44,629 nt of DNA from a virus. Taxonomy: Duplodnaviria > Heunggongvirae > Uroviricota > Caudoviricetes. Positions 5,987-27,675 of this stretch are shown here, one piece after another (within the stretch, counting starts at the first letter, position 1; the number at the start of each line of letters is the position of its first letter). A program made the translations under genes and the position numbers. The notes under the pieces were generated by a model. It did no database searches. It was given only the letters and a program-made list of their open reading frames with translations, and was not told where the DNA came from. The stretch lies in IMG/VR virus record IMGVR_UViG_2609460219_000007, one strand, 5' to 3'.

Positions 5987-6394
5987 TTATCTTTTATTTG
6001 TCCGCTGACGGGCTTTTAGTAATTCTTCAAAGAGTTTATTGAAGTTTTTTACTCGAGCTCGCATTTCGGCGAGCTGGGTATCCTGTTCTGATTCTGGCAG
6101 TGCATTAAACAGCTCAAGGAGCTCTAGTTCTTTGGGGGATAAGGCAACTGGCTTCTCAACAGGTGGTGTTGGTTGCTTGTCTTCATCGCCAAATAGAATC
6201 CATGTTGGTGAGCATTGCAATACTTTGCTGAGGGCAAAAAGGTTCTTTCCTGTAGGTTCACTATCATCCCGTTCCCATTGTGATACAGACACATGGGAGA
6301 TTTTCANGGCTTTAGCAAGAGACCTTTGGGTGTGTTTGAGGTTTTTCCGACGATACCTAATGCGTTCGCCGATAGTTAAATTTTTTGTTTCCAT
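5987..6394 (-). CDS. dicA: HTH-type repressor DicA (CI-like)
   Basis: 135-aa product METKNLTIGERIRYRRKNLKHTQRSLAKA.KISHVSVSQWER... matches recalled DicA; divergent from dicC. Confidence 0.9.
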   Translation of the reverse strand: METKNLTIGERIRYRRKNLKHTQRSLAKAXKISHVSVSQWERDDSEPTGKNLFALSKVLQCSPTWILFGDEDKQPTPPVEKPVALSPKELELLELFNALPESEQDTQLAEMRARVKNFNKLFEELLKARQRTNKR

Positions 6395-6477
6395 AGTTAG
6401 CTAATGCTAAATCGTATTGACTATGTTTTTGTTAACATCTATTTTGTTAGTCATAACTAACAATAAAGGTGTTTTAA
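6395..6477. promoter_or_regulatory. dicA/dicC divergent promoter-operator region
   Basis: 83-bp AT-rich intergenic region between divergent repressor genes; perfect inverted repeat TTGTTAGT-CATA-ACTAACAA at 6444-6463 and palindrome TTAGCTAA at 6397-6404. Confidence 0.6.
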
Positions 6478-6708
6478 ATGCTTAAAACTGACGCTCTTTT
6501 GTATTTCGGTTCAAAAACAAAACTTGCACAAGCAGCAGGTATTCGTTTGGCTTCGCTTTATAGCTGGAAAGGGGATTTAGTTCCCGAAGGTCGCGCGATG
6601 CGTCTACAGGAGGCATCTGGCGGGGAGCTTCAGTATGATCCCAAAGTTTATGATGAATATCGTAAGACGAAGCGGGCGGGGCGGTTGAACAATGAAAATC
6701 ACTCCTGA
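6478..6708 (+). CDS. dicC: Cro-like repressor DicC
   Basis: 76-aa product MLKTDALLYFGSKTKLAQAAGIRLASLYSWKGDLVPEGRAMRLQEASGGELQYDPKVYDEYRK... matches recalled DicC and length. Confidence 0.85.
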   Translation: MLKTDALLYFGSKTKLAQAAGIRLASLYSWKGDLVPEGRAMRLQEASGGELQYDPKVYDEYRKTKRAGRLNNENHS

Positions 6709-7213
6709 ACAGGCTCGTGAGGCTCTGGATGNCTGGATATGTCGACCAGGAATGACACAGGAGCAGGCGACGATATTAATCACTGAAGCATTCTGGGCTT
6801 TGAAAGAGCGCCCGAACATCGATGTTCAGCGTGTCACAGATGAAGGTGGCGCGGTTGATCAGCGAGCGCTTGGCGTTAATCGAGTGAAGATATTCGAACG
6901 CTGGAAGGCTATCGACACCAGGGATAAGCGTGAAAAGTTCAGGGCGCTAGTGCCTGCGATTATGGAGGCTATCCGGATTAGTGATTTCAGGTTGTATCGT
7001 GAGATCAGTGATGGAAAAAGTATTACGTACATGATCGCCGGGTTAAATAAAGAATATGGCGATGTGGTGGAATCCGGACTGCTTTTTGCAGATCCTGCCG
7101 TTGTAGATCGTGAAACTGACGAACTTATAGAAAAAGCAATTGCTTTCAAGCTTGCGTATCGACAGCAATACCAACAAAAAGCTGGATGGAATTATGAGTC
7201 TTCTTTTTGCTGA
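6692..7213 (+). CDS. Hypothetical early protein (CII position)
   Basis: 173-aa ORF overlapping the dicC stop, MKITPEQAREALD...; no motif recognised; one N. Confidence 0.5.
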   Translation: MKITPEQAREALDXWICRPGMTQEQATILITEAFWALKERPNIDVQRVTDEGGAVDQRALGVNRVKIFERWKAIDTRDKREKFRALVPAIMEAIRISDFRLYREISDGKSITYMIAGLNKEYGDVVESGLLFADPAVVDRETDELIEKAIAFKLAYRQQYQQKAGWNYESSFC

Positions 7214-8159
7214 ACGCCCACTGGTTATAAACACGCAGCTGGCAATGAAAATTGGCTTAAACGAAGCCATTGTTTTGCAACAACTGCACTACTGGTTGAG
7301 AGATACCAACTCCGGCATGGAATGTGATGGTGTTCGCTGGATTTATAACACAACGGAACAATGGCTGGAACAGTTCCCATTCTGGTCAGAGTCAACGTTA
7401 AAGCGCGCGTTTGCAAGTCTGAAAACGCTGGGGCTTTTGCGTTGTGAAAAGCTCAATAAATCAAAGCGCGATATGACCAATTTCTACACGATCAACTACG
7501 GGAGCGAGCTTTTAGATGGTGGCAAATTGAGCGAATCCATCGGTTTAAAATGCGCCGCTCCATCAGGTCAAAATGACACGATGGAAGAGGTCAAAATGAA
7601 ACGCTCCATTGGTTCAAAACGACTCAATGTCATCGGGTCAAAATGGCCTGATGATCTTACAGAGAATACAACAGAGATTACTACAGAGAATAAAAAGACT
7701 TCTCGTCCGGAAGCTTCGCAACCGGACCCGCAGACGGTTGAACAGGATTTTTTAACCCGACACCCTGACGCGGTTGTGTTCAGTGCGAAAAAACGCCAGT
7801 GGGGCAGCCAGGAAGATTTGGCGTGTGCGCAGTGGATCTGGGGGCGAATCGTGAGTCTTTACGAGCAGGCCGCCAGCGATGATGGCGAGATTTCGCGACC
7901 GAAAGAACCCAACTGGACCGCATGGGCCAACGACGTGCGCACAATGCGGATGCTGGATGGCAGAACTCACAGACAAATTTGTGAAATGTTTGGTCGGGTG
8001 CAGCGGGATCCATTCTGGGTAAAAAATATCATGAGTCCGTCAAAGCTTCGCGAAAAATGGGATGAACTGGTTATCCGCCTGGGGCGTTCGTCTGTACAGC
8101 GTTGTGTGAATCATATTTCTGAGCCGGATACCGAAATTCCGCCGGGCTTCAGGGGGTAA
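7194..8159 (+). CDS. Replication initiator / replisome organizer (lambda O-like role)
   Basis: N-terminal winged-helix-like segment (PLVINTQLAMKIGLNEAIVLQQLHYWL...), then a linker that contains an iteron array in the DNA, then a C-terminal domain; start chosen at MSLLFAERP (7140 also possible). Confidence 0.65.
   Translation: MSLLFAERPLVINTQLAMKIGLNEAIVLQQLHYWLRDTNSGMECDGVRWIYNTTEQWLEQFPFWSESTLKRAFASLKTLGLLRCEKLNKSKRDMTNFYTINYGSELLDGGKLSESIGLKCAAPSGQNDTMEEVKMKRSIGSKRLNVIGSKWPDDLTENTTEITTENKKTSRPEASQPDPQTVEQDFLTRHPDAVVFSAKKRQWGSQEDLACAQWIWGRIVSLYEQAASDDGEISRPKEPNWTAWANDVRTMRMLDGRTHRQICEMFGRVQRDPFWVKNIMSPSKLREKWDELVIRLGRSSVQRCVNHISEPDTEIPPGFRG
7542..7700. repeat. Putative phage replication origin: five ~23-bp-spaced GGT(C/T)AAAA(T/C)G iterons plus an A-rich ACAGAGA-repeat segment
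   Basis: Iterons at 7542, 7566, 7589, 7611 and 7636, followed by tacagagaatacaacagagattactacagagaataaaaag; lies inside the linker of the initiator gene as lambda ori lies inside O. Confidence 0.6.
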
Positions 8160-8199
8160 GTGTTAATTTCTGGTCATGAGGTAATTTTCAGGAGGGCTT

Positions 8200-8622
8200 G
8201 TGGCAAAAGTTTTTACACAAGAAGAGCGGGAAAAAATTAAAGGGCAGGTTGTTGAACTCGTACGCCGGAGTGGGCGTGAGACGTTACGGCAACTGGAAGT
8301 CAAGACAGGTGCGACAAGATATCTGATGAGCGTTCTCGCAAGAGAGCTGGTTGCCAGCGGCGATGTATACAACTCTGGTTACGGGTTATTCCCGTCTGAA
8401 CAGGCGCGTAAGGACTGGCAAAATGCCCGTAAAAAGCTCTCAAGGGTAAAGCTGAAGGAACCATCTGCGGTTGATCCGGACCTTATCTGGTCATTACCTG
8501 ACGGAGAAATACGTCGTTACGACAGGCGTCATAATATGATTTGTACTGAGTGTCGTAAAAGCGAAGTTATGCAGCGCATATTGTCGTTTTATCAGGGGGA
8601 TGTCCGGTATTTATTGAAGTGA
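8200..8622 (+). CDS. Hypothetical protein (replication-module neighbour)
   Basis: 140-aa ORF with GTG start preceded by AGGAGG at 8185-8190; no Walker motif, so not an obvious helicase loader. Confidence 0.5.
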   Translation: MAKVFTQEEREKIKGQVVELVRRSGRETLRQLEVKTGATRYLMSVLARELVASGDVYNSGYGLFPSEQARKDWQNARKKLSRVKLKEPSAVDPDLIWSLPDGEIRRYDRRHNMICTECRKSEVMQRILSFYQGDVRYLLK

Positions 8623-8859: not shown

Positions 8860-10194
8860 TTATGATACCGATAAAAACTTTTTTGTAATTTCTGCTGCCG
8901 TTTTCTCCATGCTGGGATATACAGTGCTTTCGGATATATTAAGCTGTGCCAGCTCTTCCAGAATTTTATTTTTGTTCGCTATCTCCACTCTGTTAAGAGG
9001 AAACTCAGCATCTGTTTCCGGTAAAATGGGATCAAGTCCGAACAGAAGAAAAGCTCCTGCCTGAGATTGTATGCGTTCATTATTTATTTTTGCCTTAAGG
9101 AAAACAACTTTCTTTAAGTCATCAGGGATTATTCTGTTTCTGAAATATGATTTTTCATTCTGTATAAGGTCTGCAAGTTTATCAGTGAGTTCAGGTAACT
9201 CCATACTACCTTTTCTGGCATCAATGGAAGACAATTTTTCCAACTCTTCGTAAGATAAAAGTGATAAGTTTGCTATACAGCTCACTGTGTCTGAGTCGAA
9301 ATATTTAATTTTCTTTCTGTTTGTTGAAAACGCAATCACCTGTCCGTTTTCATCGGGGTTCGAACAGCAAGCAAAATATAATGCTATCAGTGGGTTAGAT
9401 GTAATGTCTAAGAGTCTTGTAGGCAAGCCATAATGCTGCATGCGGACAAGTTTATCAATCGTAAATTTATCCTCCTTAAATTCATTTGGTCTTGCGCTGA
9501 GTATTTCACGTACTAAATCAGATTCTGAAGCAAGATGCCTGTACGTCCCGTTTTGATTTTTTCTGTAAAGAGAGGGGACAAGCTCATATGAGCTTTTAGA
9601 GTGTCCACGATAGAAGGTAATGAGACCATCACGAAAGTTTTTCTTAATGAAATTAAGATAATCTATAATATTCTCGACTACTGGGTATGTTTGTTTTTTT
9701 AATTTGATTGTACCTTTCAGATGGCTATTTTTTTTGTTTAAACCAAGTAATTCCAGAACAATATTCAAATCCTTATTTTTTACTGCCCAATGTGTACGAC
9801 TTAACCCGAAAGATCCTAGTCCTAGGGTTTCTTTATATAATGTCGTTTGGGGATTCGTTATTTCTCCAAAATCATGATTAATCTTGAAAGAAAATAAAAT
9901 ATCGCCACCATCTTTACGTAAATTTCTTATTTCCCCAAGCCTGATCCTGATGTACTTGTTTGTATCATATTCATCATCTTTTGTATAAATTTCGGTCATG
10001 AACAACACCGGTAGCTTGGCGAGTACTCTTAAGGTATCGGGTCTTATTGGTGTTAATTTTCTGTAAATATTGCTTGGGGTGCCTTCCAGCATGCGGGACA
10101 TCGAGAAGCTTTCCTTGCCTTCTTTAAGCTCAGGGTCCATACACGGCCAGCGGTCAAAAACGTCCGGTTCTCCGGCCATGATTAAGCTAAACAT
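8860..10194 (-). CDS. FRG-domain protein with uncharacterised N-terminal domain (candidate defence/abortive-infection gene)
   Basis: 444-aa ORF with strong RBS (AGGAGA, 5-nt spacer, ATG); central motifs ...ITFYRGHSKSSYELVPSLYR... and ...MQHYGLPTRLLDITSNPLIALYFAC... match the FRG domain family as I recall it; the gene is visibly AT-rich relative to its flanks. Confidence 0.75.
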   Translation of the reverse strand: MFSLIMAGEPDVFDRWPCMDPELKEGKESFSMSRMLEGTPSNIYRKLTPIRPDTLRVLAKLPVLFMTEIYTKDDEYDTNKYIRIRLGEIRNLRKDGGDILFSFKINHDFGEITNPQTTLYKETLGLGSFGLSRTHWAVKNKDLNIVLELLGLNKKNSHLKGTIKLKKQTYPVVENIIDYLNFIKKNFRDGLITFYRGHSKSSYELVPSLYRKNQNGTYRHLASESDLVREILSARPNEFKEDKFTIDKLVRMQHYGLPTRLLDITSNPLIALYFACCSNPDENGQVIAFSTNRKKIKYFDSDTVSCIANLSLLSYEELEKLSSIDARKGSMELPELTDKLADLIQNEKSYFRNRIIPDDLKKVVFLKAKINNERIQSQAGAFLLFGLDPILPETDAEFPLNRVEIANKNKILEELAQLNISESTVYPSMEKTAAEITKKFLSVS

Positions 10195-20828: not shown

Positions 20829-21821
20829 ATGGGTTTTTCATCAGCCCGAAATTTGGGAAGGGACATATCGGCAGGATTTTCCCCACCACGTCGCATGCCG
20901 ATTTCGGAGGCTGTTAAAAAATTCATGCGTGTTCCCAAGGGGGCTGGTAACTCGGTGCCATGGGATCCTGAACTGACACCCTACATCATTGAGCCCATGA
21001 ACTGCCTGGCATCGCGTGAATACGATGCGGTGATTTTTGTTGGTCCTGCGCGAACAGGGAAGACCATTGGTCTGATCGATGGATGGATTGTCTATACCAT
21101 CGTTTGCGATCCTTCGGACATGCTCGTTGTGCAGATGACCGAAGATAAGGCCCGCGAGCATTCTAAAAAGCGCCTCGACAGAACGTTCAGAAGCAGTGCG
21201 GCGGTAAAGAAAAGAATGAGTCCACGTCGTAACGACAATAATGTCCATGATAAGACGTTCAGGGATGGCTCGTTCCTTAAAATTGGTTGGCCCTCGGTCA
21301 ACATTATGTCGTCGTCGGATTACCGGTTTGTCGCCTTAACCGATTACGACCGTTTTCCGGAGAATATCGACAGCGAGGGTGATGGTTTCTCCCTGGCCTC
21401 AAAACGTACCACCACATTTATGTCCGCCGGGATGACTCTGGTGGAGAGCTCGCCGGGACGTGACATCTGCGACAGCAAATGGCGACGTAAGTCGCCTCAT
21501 GAAGCGCCACCGACGACTGGTATTCTTTCCCTTTACAATCGTGGTGACCGCCGCCGCTGGTACTGGTCATGTCCGCACTGCGGTGAATATTTTCAGCCAG
21601 CCATGGATGCCATGACCGGCTACCGTAATGAACCGGATCCCTTTAAAGCCAGTGAGGCGGCGTATCTACTTTGCCCGCACTGCAGCGGCATTATCACTGC
21701 GGAGAAAAAGCGTGAGCTCAATAGTGCAGGAGTCTGGTTGCGTGAAGGTCAGGTCATTGATCGTAACGGCAACGTTTCCGGTGAACCGCGCCGCTCCCGT
21801 ATCGCCAGTTTCTGGATGTAG
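20829..21821 (+). CDS. Terminase large subunit (TerL/gpA-like), N-terminal ATPase portion; reading frame interrupted at 21819
   Basis: 330-aa ORF with Walker A-like VGPARTGKT and a CPHCGEY...CPHCSG zinc-finger region; ends ...RIASFWM* exactly at the left junction of the inserted element; the C-terminal portion resumes at 32564. Confidence 0.8.
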   Translation: MGFSSARNLGRDISAGFSPPRRMPISEAVKKFMRVPKGAGNSVPWDPELTPYIIEPMNCLASREYDAVIFVGPARTGKTIGLIDGWIVYTIVCDPSDMLVVQMTEDKAREHSKKRLDRTFRSSAAVKKRMSPRRNDNNVHDKTFRDGSFLKIGWPSVNIMSSSDYRFVALTDYDRFPENIDSEGDGFSLASKRTTTFMSAGMTLVESSPGRDICDSKWRRKSPHEAPPTTGILSLYNRGDRRRWYWSCPHCGEYFQPAMDAMTGYRNEPDPFKASEAAYLLCPHCSGIITAEKKRELNSAGVWLREGQVIDRNGNVSGEPRRSRIASFWM

Positions 21822-21982
21822 GGTACATTTCTTACCTGTTTTTATGTTCTGGTGTCGTTTTGTAGTCTTTTCAATGAGTTGTGATTTTTTGTGTTTCCTC
21901 TCTTTACTTGATAATGAGTTAGTTTATCGCTTGTTATCGACTTGAAAGGACTACATGACGGACTAAAAAATGAGGGCGATAG

Positions 21983-23156
21983 ATGCCGGTAAAGCCATTA
22001 ACTGTGACTGAAGTTAAGGGAATGAAACCACGTGAAAAGGACTATGCCGTTTATGATGGGTTCGGTTTATTGCTGAATGTGAGTAAAGCTGGTGGGAAAG
22101 TGTGGCGTTTCCGTTATAGCCATCCGATAACGAAGAAACGGCAGACATACACGATAGGGCGTTTTCCTGAATTCTCACTCGCGGAAGCACGGGAAGTACG
22201 TGATGAACTTCGGCGAATGATTGCACGTGGAGTTGATCCAGTGACAGAGAAGAAAAATCGTAAAATTGAGATGTCACTAAAAAATCTACAAACATTTGAA
22301 GCTGTTGCTAATGCATGGATCGCTTTTAAAAAGGGATCGGAATTGCGGAAACCTACGCTGTATAATATCGAATATGAAGTATACAAATATCTTGTTCCTT
22401 TCTTTGGTAAGTACAGCATAGAGAAAATTACAGCGCCAGTAGCTATTAATGCTCTGGATGCCGTATCCGATAAGAATGCGTTGCAAAAAAAANTTAATAT
22501 CAAGATTAAATGAAATTATGAATTACGCTGTAAATTGTGGAGCATTGAAAACGAATCCATTACTTAAGATAAAAACTGCATTCACAGGAAAGAAAAATAA
22601 ATCATTAGCTGCACTACCTGTTGAAAGATTGCCTGAATTTCTGAGTTGGTGGGATAGTGTGCCTCATAAGTATCAAATAGCTCACAATGCACTTTTATTC
22701 CAGATATTGACAATGGTCAGGCCAGGTGAGGCGATTAAAGCAGAGTGGTCCGAGATTGATTTTGATTCTGGCTTGTGGATTATCCCCGCGCATAAAATGA
22801 AATGCCATCGTGAACATGTTGTGCCTCTCTCATCACAGGCTATTAGAATCCTAAGAACAATGCAGGAAATAAAAAGAGGGCGTTATATATTTTTTTCCTC
22901 CAGAACAAAAGATGCTCCTATGGGAAAGAATACTATCAATACCCCAATTGCTGCCAGCAAGTTCAAAGGGATTGTAACGTTACACGGTTTTCGTTCGATG
23001 TGGAGTACGCTTTTAAATGAGGAGGGTTTTAACCCTGATGTTATTGAGGCTGCATTAGCACATAAAAGTGGTGATAAAATAAGAGATATTTATAATAGAA
23101 CTACTTATTTAGAACAACGCAAAATTATGATGCAATNGGGTAGGAGATTTTTTTGA
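21983..23156 (+). CDS. P4-type tyrosine integrase (apparent frameshift at an A-run containing N at 22493)
   Basis: Two overlapping ORFs (21983-22513, 22449-23156) that together read as one integrase: N-terminal arm-binding-type domain, C-terminal catalytic ...HGFRSMWSTLLNE...ALAHKSGDKIRDIYNR...; sits at the left end of the element. Confidence 0.8.
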
Positions 23157-23235
23157 TGAGGCGAGAAAAGGGGTAATTAATAGATCCGGTGGTAAGAAAG
23201 GTTTGAGAATAGTAAATGGTTGAGGAGTTCAGCAA

Positions 23236-23439
23236 ATGAATACCAATGAAGATATTTTATTTACTAAAGACGTAATGAAAATTTTGCGCTATGGGGCAAT
23301 GAGCGCATTCATCAATTTCTGGAAAGATGAAAATAATGGTTTTCCTCAACCGTTCAGAATTGGGCGGCGGCATACCTGGCACCGTAGAGATGTAGAGGCA
23401 TGGTTAGATAAACAACGAGAACAGGCCAATCCCCACTAA
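23236..23439 (+). CDS. AlpA-family transcriptional regulator / excisionase-like
   Basis: 67-aa small HTH protein directly downstream of the integrase (int-alpA arrangement of P4/PICI elements). Confidence 0.7.
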   Translation: MNTNEDILFTKDVMKILRYGAMSAFINFWKDENNGFPQPFRIGRRHTWHRRDVEAWLDKQREQANPH

Positions 23440-23453
23440 TAATATCTTTCATA

Positions 23454-23478
23454 CCCCGCACGCAATGCGGGGTTTTTT
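23454..23478 (+). terminator. Rho-independent terminator after the alpA-like gene
   Basis: CCCCGCA-CGCAA-TGCGGGG hairpin followed by TTTTTT. Confidence 0.7.
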
Positions 23479-23497
23479 GTATGTGAGGTAAAAAACG

Positions 23498-24079
23498 ATG
23501 AATAAAAATATTGCCGTGACGGGCAAGGGGTACGCTCGTTCAGTAAAAAAATTCTGCGATATTCGTGATCTTGTCGTTCTGCGCTTTGATGGCGTGGATG
23601 TTCGTGTGGTGTATCTGAACGGCGATCCGTGGTTTATTGCAAAGGATGTTTGTGAAGCTCTGGAAATAAGCAACTCACGCGATGCTCTAAAAGCTCTGGA
23701 TGTGGATGAGAAGAATACCGTCGCTTTAAGCTACGGTATTCGCGGAAATCCAAATCATAGCGTCGTTTCTGAATCTGGTTTTTACAAGCTGATCGCCAGA
23801 AGTCGCAAAGCTGTTACTCCTGGCACGTTCGCCCATCGTTTCAGTAACTGGGTATTCAGGAATGTGATACCAGGTATCAGAAAAACGGGGGCTTATGGTA
23901 TCCCGTGGGGGGCATTACAGGATTTTTCCCGCCGTAAAGAGCAATATCAAATAAGTGCCAGCGAGAAGGGGAGGGAGCTACAGGCATGTAAGCGCAAAAA
24001 GCGTGAGCTGGAGGAAGAAGAAAAAAGGCTGATACGTGAATATCAGCCTGAGTTTTACTTTGGTGAGCGTATTCAGTAA
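23498..24079 (+). CDS. Bro-N domain protein (antirepressor-like)
   Basis: 193-aa product; N-terminal ...FDGVDVRVVYLNGDPWFIAKDVCEALEISNSRDALKALDVDEK... is Bro-N-like; C-terminal charged coiled-coil. Confidence 0.65.
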   Translation: MNKNIAVTGKGYARSVKKFCDIRDLVVLRFDGVDVRVVYLNGDPWFIAKDVCEALEISNSRDALKALDVDEKNTVALSYGIRGNPNHSVVSESGFYKLIARSRKAVTPGTFAHRFSNWVFRNVIPGIRKTGAYGIPWGALQDFSRRKEQYQISASEKGRELQACKRKKRELEEEEKRLIREYQPEFYFGERIQ

Positions 24080-24254
24080 CCACGCGCATTGCTGATTATA
24101 CGATACATCGTGTTAACCGGGAAGCTCCCCACCAGCAAGGCAAAATCTTCTGCTAAAAAATGACATATGAGCAGCCGTCCTGAAAGCATGAAGTTTTGCA
24201 GGAATAGATGCTGCAGTTCTTTATTTTATCAATTGGACTTTAGATAAAAGTAAA

Positions 24255-24273
24255 GGCGACCGAGGTGGTCGCC
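24255..24273. terminator. Bidirectional intrinsic terminator between convergent genes
   Basis: GGCGACC-GAGGT-GGTCGCC hairpin with T-runs on both sides. Confidence 0.6.
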
Positions 24274-24295
24274 AGTTTTATTTTTATATTTTTCT

Positions 24296-24703
24296 CTATT
24301 GCATCAACAATGAATGTCTTATCCACATTACGAGGGATGGAATAATTTTTATGTATCCGCCATATGCCCATATAATGGTGCCAAAAACAGTTAGTCCAAC
24401 CCCGAGTACTTCAGCTTTTATTTCCTCTCTGACCTCAACTCGAGCTTTAGCTAAGTTTTCTTCTCGTATCTTTTGTGATTCTTCCGCAGACAATGGCGGG
24501 CCAGTTACGCCACTGCGTGAATTAATTTCAGCTTCGCGATTAGATAATTTTTTTAAAGTTGTGAACTTGATTGTATACAACAATCCAAAAACTGAAATAA
24601 TTGCACCTGAGCTGGCGAATAGATTCATATCATTAAGATATTGGCCGAACNAAAAAGCTTGCTCCACAAAAAACACATAATATGGCAATGGATGTTTTTG
24701 CAC
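24296..24703 (-). CDS. Small two-TM membrane protein (AT-rich cargo gene)
   Basis: ORF with hydrophobic helices (SGAIISVFGLLYTI; VLGVGLTVFGTIIWAYGGYIKII) flanking a charged segment; N at 24651 makes the 5' end uncertain (alternative start MNLFASSG at 24634). Confidence 0.45.
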   Translation of the reverse strand: MQKHPLPYYVFFVEQAFXFGQYLNDMNLFASSGAIISVFGLLYTIKFTTLKKLSNREAEINSRSGVTGPPLSAEESQKIREENLAKARVEVREEIKAEVLGVGLTVFGTIIWAYGGYIKIIPSLVMWIRHSLLMQ

Positions 24704-24771
24704 CGAGTATTTTCAGTAATATTGTTCTAAATCTCTTCATTGTTAATATATCCTATCATAGAAGTAGTAAT

Positions 24772-24966
24772 TCACCCCTTAGGTTCGATACCGCGCCGCT
24801 TTAGTTCGGAGCGCCCTAACTCTTTAAGCCAGTTAGCAAGGCTTACACCATCATTATTAGCCTCGCTATCAAACTGTTCTTTCAGTTCTGGAGCTATACG
24901 CATATGGAAAGGGGGAGCCTTTCCTGTCCCTTTGGGTTTTTTATCGCGTTTAATTATTGTTGACAT
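24772..24966 (-). CDS. Ribbon-helix-helix (CopG/Arc-like) DNA-binding protein
   Basis: 64-aa product ...HMRIAPELKEQFDSEANNDGVSLANWLKELGRSEL... with RHH-like pattern; start abuts a 12-bp inverted repeat. Confidence 0.55.
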   Translation of the reverse strand: MSTIIKRDKKPKGTGKAPPFHMRIAPELKEQFDSEANNDGVSLANWLKELGRSELKRRGIEPKG

Positions 24967-25009
24967 GTGTACACCTATAGCGTTATGTTTTCATTCGATA
25001 GGTGTACAC
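24967..25009. promoter_or_regulatory. Candidate operator: inverted repeat GTGTACACCTAT ... ATAGGTGTACAC
   Basis: Perfect 12-bp arms at 24967-24978 and 24998-25009, immediately upstream of the RHH gene in a divergent intergenic region; further ACACGTGT palindrome at 25014-25021. Confidence 0.5.
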
Positions 25010-25301
25010 CTTAACACGTGTGCATTTAATAACGCAACGCCCCGCAGTGCTGGAACACATGCAGGGCGTCTAACCACCAACGATAGCAACAGTATCGAGG
25101 TAGCTATGTTAAATCATACCACACACCCGCAAGGGCGGGACTCGCACAACCTGAATAAATACATCTGGCGTTTTATCGCCCTGAGCACCGCACAACCGCG
25201 CGTGATTCACATCGAGGCCACCAGCGAACAGGAAGTCCGCCAGCAATCCACGGTTGGCTGCGTGATGGTATTCACTGCCTGTATTCGTCAGGGGGCGCAG
25301 C

Positions 25302-25502
25302 ATGCACAATTATGAAGCGCACTTACCTGTAGTTCTTAATGTGCCGTCAGATTATACGGGACGCGTTTTGATATTTCTCGATAAAGGGAAAGTGAAATCA
25401 CAATGCCGCCTTAGAAATAATGAGGTTGTTGGTTCTCTGGCTTTTTTTTCTGAGGCCTGTATTCGTGCCGGAATAAAACTTGAATCACTGACAGGAAAAT
25501 AA
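25302..25502 (+). CDS. Hypothetical protein
   Basis: 66-aa ORF upstream of the primase gene. Confidence 0.35.
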   Translation: MHNYEAHLPVVLNVPSDYTGRVLIFLDKGKVKSQCRLRNNEVVGSLAFFSEACIRAGIKLESLTGK

Positions 25503-25507
25503 AAACC

Positions 25508-25807
25508 ATGAAAAAGAAAAATTCTGGCTTTACTGCCAGTGACTTCTCTCGGCCTGAAATCCGCCCCGGCGATATTTTCCGTGATAACTACGGCGGTACG
25601 GTAACGATTAAAGGCGTGGCAGAACGGCGCATCACCTACCGNCGTGAAGGTTACGAATATGATTGCGTGATGCCTGTTTATCAATTCCGGCGTGATTTTT
25701 CCCTGGTACATGCTGCGCCCCGCAGTAAACCCACCAGCAGGGAAAAAGTGCGGGGAAATATCCAGAAAATGAAAAGCATGATTAACGCATTCAGGGGCAA
25801 AAAATGA
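25508..25807 (+). CDS. Hypothetical protein
   Basis: 99-aa ORF overlapping the primase start (ATGA); one N. Confidence 0.45.
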   Translation: MKKKNSGFTASDFSRPEIRPGDIFRDNYGGTVTIKGVAERRITYXREGYEYDCVMPVYQFRRDFSLVHAAPRSKPTSREKVRGNIQKMKSMINAFRGKK

Positions 25808-27663
25808 AGCTTGCACCGAACTTAAAAAAACAGCCACGCGACAGACTGACAGAGGTAATCATCTTTGCGGGTAGTGATGCGTGGAGCCATGCGAAAGAGT
25901 GGCAGGAGTNGGCAGGTAAACATATTGCTGCCGACAACGTGCCGCCTGTTGTGCTGGCTGATGAGCAACTGAAAAACATCACCGACTACCGGATCATTGA
26001 TGATGGTCGTGAATGTGTACGCATTTATTGCGCAGGCCATATCACAGAGCGCAGTCTTACGCAGATCGCCACCTTACTTGCAGTTGCTGGTGTGCAAAAT
26101 GCACGTTGTTGGCGGAGCTTTGCAGATAAGGAATCGCCGGAGGACTGGTCGCCGCGCCTTGCCGGGCTGAAAGCTGAATATGAACGCGGAGAAAGTCTGG
26201 TTATGAGCAGCAGGGAATTAGCAGAAAGTAAAAAAGTAGTTGAACTGCCTGTAAAGAAAAAAGAGCGGATAAAAGACGATAAGGCTTCATCACTGGCGCT
26301 TAACCAGATGGGAGCAAGTCAACGCGGTGAAGTCCTCCTGGCACGTTATGGCGGTGAACTGGCGATTCATGCCGACTCTGACACTGTTCACCATTACAAC
26401 GGCGTTGTATGGGAGCCAGTACAGGATAAAGAGTTACAGCGTGCTATGGCGCAGATTTTCATTGATGCGGAGATCAGCTATTCGCAGAACGCCATTAAAT
26501 CGGCGGTCGATACCATGAAGTTAAGCTTGCCTGTGATGGGGAATACAGCCCGTAACCTGATTGGATTCAGTAACGGGGTATTTGATACCCGGACAGGTAA
26601 TTTTCGGAAGCATAACAAAAATGACTGGTTGTTAATTGCCAGTGAATTACCGTTCAGNCCACCAGCAGAGGGGGAAACGCTGGCAACACATGCGCCGAAT
26701 TTCTGGAAGTGGTTGCGCCGTTCGGTGGCTGAGAATGACCGCAAGGCAGATCGTGTACTGGCGGCATTATTCATGGTGCTGGCGAACCGGTACGACTGGC
26801 AGTTATTCATTGAGGTAACAGGGCCGGGGGGAAGCGGTAAAAGCGTGATGGCGGAGATTTGCACCATGCTGGCGGGTAAGGCTAATACAGTATCAGCAAG
26901 CATGAAGGCGCTGGAAGACGCAAGGGAACGCGCGTTAGTGGTTGGCTTTTCGCTGATTATCATGCCGGATATGACCCGCTACGCTGGTGATGGGGCAGGG
27001 ATTAAGGCCATTACAGGCGGTGACAAGGTGGCAATTGACCCGAAACACAAAGCCCCCTATTCAACGCGTATTCCGGCAGTAGTGCTGGCGGTTAACAATA
27101 ACGCCATGTCATTCAGTGATCGCAGCGGGGGGATCTCACGTCGTCGGGTGATATTCAATTTTTCGGAAGTTGTACCGGAGAACGAACGCGATTCGATGCT
27201 GGCGGAAAAAATAGAAGGTGAGTTGGCGGTAGTGATTCGTCATCTGCTTACACGATTTGCTGATCAGGACGAAGCCAGACGCCTGTTATATGAGCAGCAG
27301 AAATCTGAAGAAGCACTGGCGATAAAGCGAGAGGGGGATTCGCTGGTGGACTTCTGCGGCTATCTCATGGCATCGGTAATGTGTGATGGCCTGTTAGTGG
27401 GTAATGCTGAAATTGTGCCATTCAGNCCACGCAGGTATCTCTATCATGCCTATCTGGCTTATATGAGGGCACATGGGTTTGGTAAACCTGTAACACTGAC
27501 GCGCTTCGGTAAAGATATGCCGGGGGCAATGGCGGAATATGGCAGGGAGTATATGAAACGGAAAACGAAGCACGGTTTGCGTTCAAACGTGACCCTGACG
27601 GAGGAATCAGAAGACTGGATGCCATCATGTGTATCGGTCACTAATGACGATAGCAAAAATTAA
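25804..27663 (+). CDS. Primase/replicative helicase (P4 alpha-like, P-loop NTPase)
   Basis: 619-aa product with Walker A GPGGSGKS and a Walker B-like hydrophobic stretch; followed by an iteron array. Confidence 0.8.
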   Translation: MKLAPNLKKQPRDRLTEVIIFAGSDAWSHAKEWQEXAGKHIAADNVPPVVLADEQLKNITDYRIIDDGRECVRIYCAGHITERSLTQIATLLAVAGVQNARCWRSFADKESPEDWSPRLAGLKAEYERGESLVMSSRELAESKKVVELPVKKKERIKDDKASSLALNQMGASQRGEVLLARYGGELAIHADSDTVHHYNGVVWEPVQDKELQRAMAQIFIDAEISYSQNAIKSAVDTMKLSLPVMGNTARNLIGFSNGVFDTRTGNFRKHNKNDWLLIASELPFXPPAEGETLATHAPNFWKWLRRSVAENDRKADRVLAALFMVLANRYDWQLFIEVTGPGGSGKSVMAEICTMLAGKANTVSASMKALEDARERALVVGFSLIIMPDMTRYAGDGAGIKAITGGDKVAIDPKHKAPYSTRIPAVVLAVNNNAMSFSDRSGGISRRRVIFNFSEVVPENERDSMLAEKIEGELAVVIRHLLTRFADQDEARRLLYEQQKSEEALAIKREGDSLVDFCGYLMASVMCDGLLVGNAEIVPFXPRRYLYHAYLAYMRAHGFGKPVTLTRFGKDMPGAMAEYGREYMKRKTKHGLRSNVTLTEESEDWMPSCVSVTNDDSKN

Positions 27664-27675
27664 ACTTATGGAATA

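Follow-up and report, generated by a model that had tools for sequence, protein, structure and literature searches.

Phased iterons and 12-nt repeats as the probable replication origin of a Qin-like lambdoid prophage, within its O-like initiator gene

Introduction

The DNA considered here is a stretch of 44,629 nucleotides from a virus of the Caudoviricetes (IMG/VR record IMGVR_UViG_2609460219_000007). The whole of this stretch is referred to as the window, and all coordinates are counted from its first base. It carries a Qin-like lambdoid prophage, and the segment 7520-7695 is very probably the vegetative replication origin of that prophage, located inside its own initiator gene and made up of iterons and a putative unwinding element. 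Judged from its sequence, the layout appears to be intact here and the same as in the isolated phages mEp460_ev081, PhiR42_1 and HannyBb. The design is known from phage lambda. The origin layout, together with a strikingly invariant 12-mer, is common to an unannotated initiator family that extends from E. coli to the phages of Staphylococcus and Bacillus. This 12-mer, shared across phyla, is the one unexpected element of the finding.

The result locates the origin of a replication module whose gene, to at least 80% of its length, is present in 1749 of 5426 complete E. coli genomes, or about one in three, and carries the label 'hypothetical protein' from the NCBI pipeline, PGAP. It also offers a rule for finding the origins of cross-phylum temperate-phage initiators of this kind: one looks 3' of the winged-helix domain for dyads phased at 22-24 nt and then for CAGAGAnTAC repeats. 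Further, the question of how such phages open their DNA and load the host helicase can be approached through the 12-mer and the loader-less, DnaT-tailed initiator.

Iterons within the initiator gene

Five repeats with a spacing of about 23 bp had been noticed inside the initiator gene in a preliminary description of the window. Repeat-finder analysis confirms them, and the positions given at that time were right within one base: the units placed at 7542 and 7611 were one base off register (7543 and 7612) because these two read GGTT, and the other positions were exact. By the repeat finder (family D1) and by reading of the sequence, the five units stand in register, with start-to-start distances of 23, 23, 23 and 24 nt. 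Three units, at 7566, 7589 and 7636, have the 10-nt core GGTCAAAATG without a mismatch. The 44.6-kb window has no further exact copy, and three in 71 nt, all inside 7566-7645, compare with 0.056 expected per strand in the whole window from base composition.

A sixth, degenerate unit lies one period 5' of the array, at 7520, and corresponds to a good copy, GGTCAAAGTGA, in mEp460_4F5 and in the Klebsiella phage relatives. With this unit the spacing becomes 23/23/23/23/24, and the array consists of at least three direct repeats with an internal dyad inside the initiator open reading frame (ORF). Past the core, the unit consensus reads tCCATCrGGTCAAAATGaC..GATG, and the sites are partly palindromic. 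The first CAGAGA of the adjoining 12-nt repeats (7660) comes 24 nt after the last iteron core (7636); thus, the whole of 7520-7695 lies on one 23/24-nt lattice.

Chance was considered as the origin of the repeats and rejected, on the count of the core as well as on the control segments of homologous loci that are described below. A peptide repeat was rejected too. The units are read in frames 0, 2, 1, 0 and 0 and encode the unrelated peptides GLKC, SGQND, EVKMK, GSKR and GSKW. With a period of 23 nt that spreads the units over three frames, the repeat is therefore a property of the DNA and not of the peptide. A scan of the array for an internal promoter or terminator found none.

A Dam site, GATC, stands between the last iteron and the 12-mers. 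It is kept at this spot (7653-7656) in the enterobacterial and Pantoea relatives that were read, and GCTC or GTTC is found there in the Pseudomonas relatives. The site may link the origin to Dam and SeqA.

Conservation of the array in homologous loci

The repeats are conserved in homologous initiator genes, a point on which the preliminary description had staked its reading. An alignment scan with the N-domain, with one genome per species, gave 184 relatives, and 80 loci were fetched. To count as an array, a 9-mer had to occur three or more times, with up to one mismatch, at a phasing of 22-24 nt or double that, within a zone of 360 nt from the end of the N-domain coding part; 724 segments of the same loci were used as controls. 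By this measure, 68% of the 77 homologous loci have a phased array of at least three copies in the equivalent position, whereas the control segments reach 0.55%. For at least four copies, the figures are 45% and 0%.

In an alignment with five relatives, down to the Hafnia phage yong2 (N-domain identity of 53%), the period is kept, and so are the columns C.AT..GG.CAAA.TG of each unit. The last step of 24 nt recurs in several genera. The identities of the N-domain fall to about 45-50%, a distance at which unconstrained DNA would be expected to lose a phased array.

The iteron core itself varies by clade, the forms being GGTCAAAATGAC, GGGCAAnTTGCAC, GGACAATTTGTCC, GCAAAATGC, TCAAAATGG and others. 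Escherichia, Citrobacter, Edwardsiella and Xenorhabdus have GGTCAAAATGAC; Pantoea, Pseudomonas, Comamonas and Acinetobacter have GGGCAAnTTGCAC. The form GGACAATTTGTCC belongs to Mixta and Hafnia, and the TCAAAATGG or CCCAAAATG types to Staphylococcus, Bacillus and the lactobacilli.

The 12-nt repeats after the array

Tandem Repeats Finder reports 2.8 copies of the 12-mer ACAGAGAATACA at 7659-7692, directly after the iterons, and the repeat form of the three 12-mers is ACAGAGAWTACW. In 7650-7699, the guanine-cytosine (GC) content of 0.32 is the minimum of the gene and the A-over-T skew of 0.47 is its maximum; GC then rises to 0.58. The 'A-rich ACAGAGA-repeat segment' of the preliminary description holds as to its A-richness, being a 12-nt tandem repeat with the lowest GC and the highest A-over-T skew, but the segment is less A+T-rich than that of lambda.

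The unit has the consensus C-W-A-CAGAGA-N-T-A-C-W, and it extends well beyond this prophage. CARAGA chains phased at 11-13 nt were counted in 59 of 80 distinct genes, 44 of which have at least three units, as against five chains in 741 kb of control sequence. They were seen in Enterobacterales, Pantoea, Pseudomonas, Comamonas, Paenalcaligenes, Bacillus, Staphylococcus and several lactobacilli, and also in Cellulosilyticum, Tissierellia and a Hydrogenimonas metagenome-assembled genome (MAG; Campylobacterota). The 12-mers are nearly constant, base for base, across clades whose iteron cores differ.

In the window, the 12-mers are in frame and code for TENT-TEIT-TENK, and linker peptides are often repetitive. 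These observations would suit an alternative in which the protein or the mRNA, as a repetitive flexible linker or an RNA element, is what is constrained, instead of a DNA site. Such an explanation is highly improbable. Its peptide version is largely refuted by the 23-nt units, with their three frames and unrelated peptides, and codon usage in the 12-mer tracts argues against it as well. The tracts were defined by peptide pattern alone, which avoids the circularity of a definition by DNA pattern. Glutamate is encoded in them by GAG 100 times and by GAA not once, compared with 381:405 outside the tracts in these genes (Fisher 2e-29), and threonine by ACA or ACT 219 times and by ACC or ACG once, compared with 296:414 elsewhere. 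Similar ratios were obtained for asparagine (AAT 44:0), isoleucine (ATT 42:1) and lysine (AAG 6, AAA 0). A near-single codon is thus used for Glu, Asn and Ile across genera, whereas the rest of the genes uses the synonyms about equally. Since both GAG and AAG are preferred, particular bases must be under constraint, and not simply the A+T content. In six of the 59 chain-bearing genes, the first spacing is 11 nt, so that the 12-mer units are read in different frames. A role at the RNA level would be compatible with these data but has no positive support in them.

With the 12-mers taken as a DNA site, a tentative proposal can be made, namely that the CAGAGAnTAC array is the sequence-specific origin-opening element of the winged-helix initiator family and is read by the initiator itself. 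It could be read, for example, as one unwound strand, in the way of DnaA and the DnaA-trios or of a plasmid Rep protein and its DNA-unwinding element (DUE). The E. coli members would then recruit the host DnaB/DnaC via the DnaT-like tail, and no phage-encoded helicase loader would be needed. Reading by the initiator itself would explain why the 12-mers are invariant from Enterobacteriaceae to Staphylococcus, Bacillus, lactobacilli and the Campylobacterota MAG while the iterons drift.

The initiator protein

The gene that houses the array had been taken for a replication initiator, and two matches bear this out as an initiator of the O-like kind. The protein corresponds over the full length of the profile to PHROG 391 (phrog_391), 'replication initiation O-like' (E 4.4e-95, profile positions 11-298 of 298), and its C-half aligns with amino acids 135-270 of lambda O. 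Its start, MSLLFAERP, is the annotated start in the phages mEp460_ev081 and PhiR42_1. The ORF is intact, and there are no ambiguous bases in 7140-8200. The Pfam search of the initiator returned no family, even at E values up to 10, apart from chance hits, and no Phage_rep_O match in the N-domain. In the NCBIfam search, the DnaT tail was the only match, with nothing for the N-domain, and BLASTP against lambda O found no similarity in the N-half.

An AlphaFold2 model of amino acids 1-120, based on 36 homologues, has a mean pLDDT of 83.6 and a winged-helix topology, and its confidence collapses from amino acid 111. The top Foldseek matches of this N-domain model are the N-domain of the staphylococcal plasmid RepA, an iteron-binding module, and its DNA complex (4pql, 5kbj, 4pt7; E 4e-3, TM about 0.5), and the remaining ones are all winged helix-turn-helix regulators. 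The array codes for amino acids 109-152, directly after the predicted folded domain, in agreement with its earlier placement in the linker-coding part of the gene. The annotated iterons of lambda code for amino acids 116-144 of O; both arrays stand at the joint of the domains.

At the other end of the protein, a sequence search of solved structures with the initiator matched only the 22-amino-acid DnaT tail. The tail ends in VNHISEPDTEIPPGFRG, to which VNTVSEPDSQIPPGFRG at the very end of E. coli DnaT corresponds, and the motif PAGFRG/S is kept in relatives with other C-domains.

Exchange of the N-terminal module

Two groups of phages share different halves of the gene. The Klebsiella phages, which have the same N-domain and a Phg_2220_C C-domain, are similar over query positions 112-589, with the similarity ending at about 7728. 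The matching span takes in the N-domain, the iterons and the 12-mers, and the Klebsiella and Hafnia phages retain both the 23-nt array and the 12-mers. In the O genes of the SfII/SfIV type, which have another N-domain and the same C-domain, the similarity begins at about 7690.

The SfII/SfIV-type O proteins of Shigella and E. coli lambdoid phages resemble the present initiator in a near-identical C-domain, the PAGFRG tail, the lack of a P gene and the presence of mid-gene repeats. The SfII O-family protein is highly similar from amino acid 165 on, with 48% identity over the whole alignment of 266 amino acids. Unlike the present gene, SfII has an unrelated N-domain and an array of GTCAAAATCTGAC with a period of 15, without the CAGAGA 12-mers. 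It thus serves as a natural 'swap' control: a change of N-domain comes with a change of repeats. From these comparisons, one specificity module would appear to be formed by the N-domain, the 23-nt array and the 12-mers, and to be swapped between phages independently of the C-domain. That its parts travel together is to be expected if the N-domain reads the array.

Table 1. Features of the initiator gene and its surroundings (coordinates in the window)
Feature	Position	Strand	Description
pR-like promoter candidate	6417..6445	+	TTGACT-17-TATTTT; consensus scan, 9/12 matches; between dicA-like and dicC/cro-like genes
O-like replication initiator gene	7194..8159	+	321 amino acids, ATG at 7194; open frame from TTG 7140
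N-terminal winged-helix domain, coding region	7194..7523	+	Amino acids 1-110; predicted; presumed iteron-binding module
Iteron unit 0	7520..7529	+	Degenerate core TGGCAAATTG, 7/10; in register
Iteron unit 1	7543..7552	+	Core GTTTAAAATG, 8/10; TCCATCG just before
Iteron unit 2	7560..7584	+	Full dyad CCATCAGGTCAAAATGACACGATGG; core 7566-7575 exact; 9/12 pairs symmetric; near-palindrome, best unit
Iteron unit 3	7589..7598	+	Core GGTCAAAATG, exact
Iteron unit 4	7612..7621	+	Core GTTCAAAACG, 8/10; TCCATTG just before
Iteron unit 5	7631..7653	+	CATCGGGTCAAAATGGCCTGATG; core 7636-7645 exact; 24 nt after unit 4
Lambda-O-like C-domain region	7632..8075	+	Amino acids 147-294; BLASTP against lambda O amino acids 135-270, 35% identity, E 4e-28
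GATC (Dam site)	7653..7656	.	Between last iteron and 12-mers
Three 12-nt repeats	7659..7694	+	ACAGAGAATACA / ACAGAGATTACT / ACAGAGAATAAA; A-rich, lowest GC; proposed DNA-unwinding element
Mosaic joint and start of GC-rich C-module	7695..7730	+	GC to 0.58; similarity breakpoints
DnaT-like C-terminal tail	8091..8156	+	VQRCVNHISEPDTEIPPGFRG, amino acids 300-321; phmmer against PDB chains 2ru8, 6aep, 9zbt; NCBIfam DnaT positions 158-179

Comparison with known systems

The closest known design is that of the lambda ori in O, along with the Shiga-toxin (Stx) phage variants 933W/P27, which have six iterons (PMC7466680). As in these, there are 4-6 direct repeats with a dyad and a central A-tract; the lambda iteron is ATCCCTCAAAACGAGGGA, the one found here is CCATCAGGTCAAAATGAC, with 20-24 nt from repeat to repeat. 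Here too, the initiator gene itself contains the array, where the parts coding for the N- and C-domains join, and an A-rich, strand-asymmetric segment comes next. The C-domain is homologous (that of lambda binds P), and the gene order of repressor, cro, cII-like gene and O is the same. The differences from lambda are also several. The N-domain is without sequence similarity to O, the iterons are unrelated except for the TCAAAA centre, a conserved 12-nt repeat takes the place behind the iterons, no P gene comes after the initiator, and the protein ends in a DnaT-like tail. Thus, the lambda ori-inside-O architecture that had been proposed for this gene is upheld in the position of the repeats and in the C-domain, but it does not extend to the N-domain, which is not Phage_rep_O, or to a following P gene.

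Plasmid iterons are known to serve copy-number control as well as initiation. An explanation can be built on this double role, in which the initiator or another phage regulator binds the repeats for the sake of control (autoregulation by a transcription roadblock, titration or 'handcuffing') and the true start of replication is elsewhere in the prophage. The array does lie in the path of the rightward early transcript, and the A+T richness beside it is modest. The explanation is nevertheless unlikely. Not one of the 724 control segments of homologous loci has at least four phased copies, the array always has the low-GC 12-mer segment at a fixed distance behind it, which is how an origin is laid out, not an operator, and the position is equivalent to that of lambda's proven ori.

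At the level of the fold, the winged helix points to the RepA_N plasmid initiators of staphylococci (RepA of pSK41/pTZ2162) as the best structural match of the model. The staphylococcal plasmids of this group carry iterons inside the rep gene. The two differ in that the structural match has an identity of 15%, the C-domains are not the same, and there is no Pfam RepA_N sequence match.

The Gram-positive DnaD-like or 'replisome organiser' initiators (S. aureus phages 96, 42E and phiIPLA88; Bacillus TP21-L) belong to the same N-domain family with about 50% identity. The Gram-positive chromosomal, prophage-like loci that were read (Staphylococcus caprae, Bacillus, lactobacilli) have arrays of 22-23 nt and CAGAGAnTAC repeats in the same place. 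Unlike the present initiator, the DnaD-like proteins have the C-domain Phg_2220_C (PF09524), and their iteron cores differ. The literature search found no description of the origins of those Gram-positive temperate phages. There is no Pfam model for the N-domain family, and the phage records call its members O-like, DnaD-like, primosomal protein I or hypothetical.

A proposed course of initiation

In lambda, the O protein binds the iterons and forms an O-some, the adjacent AT-rich tract unwinds, and the origin lies in the middle of O; the protein has affinity for A/T-rich single strands as well (PMC7466680, with the work cited there). In the prophage, dimers of the initiator N-domain would bind the dyad-symmetric iterons (7520-7653) and form an O-some-like nucleoprotein complex. 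Torsional stress, aided by rightward transcription from the pR-like candidate, would then open the 12-mer segment (7655-7700), and the initiator would bring the host DnaB helicase to the opened DNA.

This last step cannot be as in lambda, since no P or DnaC-like gene follows the initiator. The helicase might instead be delivered through the lambda-O-like C-domain and the DnaT-like tail, with host DnaC and not with a phage loader. As an adaptor, DnaT is thought to deliver DnaB/DnaC to restart complexes (PMC13377028), and the DnaT papers that were found contain no discussion of phage O proteins. A DnaT-like route to the host helicase is a reasonable conjecture.

Several points weigh against the assignment of 7520-7695 as the origin. 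Two or three of the six units are degenerate. Over 40 nt, the segment proposed to unwind has an A+T content of only 65-68%, which is below that of the lambda segment at the equivalent place. The fold match with RepA is weak, and the counts of conservation are not independent samples, as the loci are phylogenetically related. Further, a phage helicase loader gene was not found, so the helicase-loading step is conjecture. A literature search found work on lambda and the Stx phages and nothing on the origin, the repeat binding or the motifs (GGTCAAAATG, ACAGAGAATAC) of this family, which is not proof that none exists.

Genomic setting of the prophage

The genes upstream of the initiator are a dicA-like repressor gene (5987-6394, minus strand), a dicC/P22-Cro-like gene (6478-6708) and a YdaT/CII-like gene (6692-7213). 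The promoter candidate between the first two may act like lambda pR, a role suggested by analogy and by its match to the consensus; rightward transcription from it would traverse the origin.

Downstream, where lambda has P, the next gene is DUF977/LygF ('Ren-like exclusion', phrog_142; 8200-8622), and no P, DnaC- or DnaB-like gene is present after the initiator. A P/DnaC-like gene is likewise absent directly downstream in mEp460_ev081, PhiR42_1, mEp460_4F5 and the Klebsiella and Hafnia phages. In the Klebsiella and Hafnia relatives, the slot of DUF977/LygF is held by Dam methylase and PerC-like genes, and because of this the DUF977/LygF gene is probably not an obligatory replication partner. 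In a neighbouring prophage of E. coli FORC 064 (L007, 38585-40079), a 'DnaT-like ssDNA-binding domain-containing protein' is followed by a short 'replication protein P'. Therefore, P-containing and P-less DnaT-tailed O-like initiators coexist in one genome.

The variable slot after the replication genes holds an FRG-domain protein of 444 amino acids (PF08867; phrog_4962) at 8860-10194 on the minus strand. The same slot has a SMEK-domain gene in E. coli FORC 064 and a methyltransferase in PhiR42_1, and it may be a position for accessory or defence cargo.

The wider layout of the window matches that in E. coli A5 (NZ_CP028769) and is that of a complete Qin-like lambdoid prophage. The related Qin prophage of K-12 is defective. 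It could accordingly be asked whether the origin is a relic of a defective prophage whose array no longer works, the more so as terL of the prophage is split by an inserted element and the gene bears no functional PGAP label. A relic is a very remote prospect given the state of the module. The initiator ORF is intact and free of ambiguous bases, and a single base (T for C at 7546, in unit 1, against PhiR42_1) sets the iteron cores and 12-mers apart from those of isolated phages. The module is 93-94% identical in the isolated phages PhiR42_1, mEp460_ev081 and HannyBb, with identical 12-mers, and 100% identical in many E. coli chromosomes. Being carried by isolated phages, it supports lytic growth.

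The satellite element in terL

An integrative element at about 21900-32500 interrupts terL of the prophage, leaving an N-part at 20829-21821 and a C-part at 32564-33676. It contains an integrase, a BRO-N antirepressor, an Icd-like gene, a primase, SSB (28194-28616), a fusion of ClpP-like protease and major capsid protein (29246-31160) and DUF1441 (31362-31904). The element looks like a capsid-encoding satellite lodged in the packaging gene of its presumed helper, the role of helper being inferred for the prophage. The same arrangement of an element in terL is found in E. coli A5 and a few other genomes.

Directly after the primase gene (25804-27663), there are 10 copies of the repeat GGTGAACAG, in both orientations, at 27677-27899. 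The prophage iterons had been described as distinct from these repeats, and this is correct; the sequences are unrelated, and those of the satellite lie beside its own primase gene. As the two repeat families share nothing, separate replicons are the natural reading. The prophage and the satellite in the window thus carry unrelated pairs of initiator and iterons.

The window also has 32 scattered single Ns (for example at 609, 5208, 6307, 6732 and 11024). They appear as X in translations and break some ORFs, among them that of the integrase (21983-23156).

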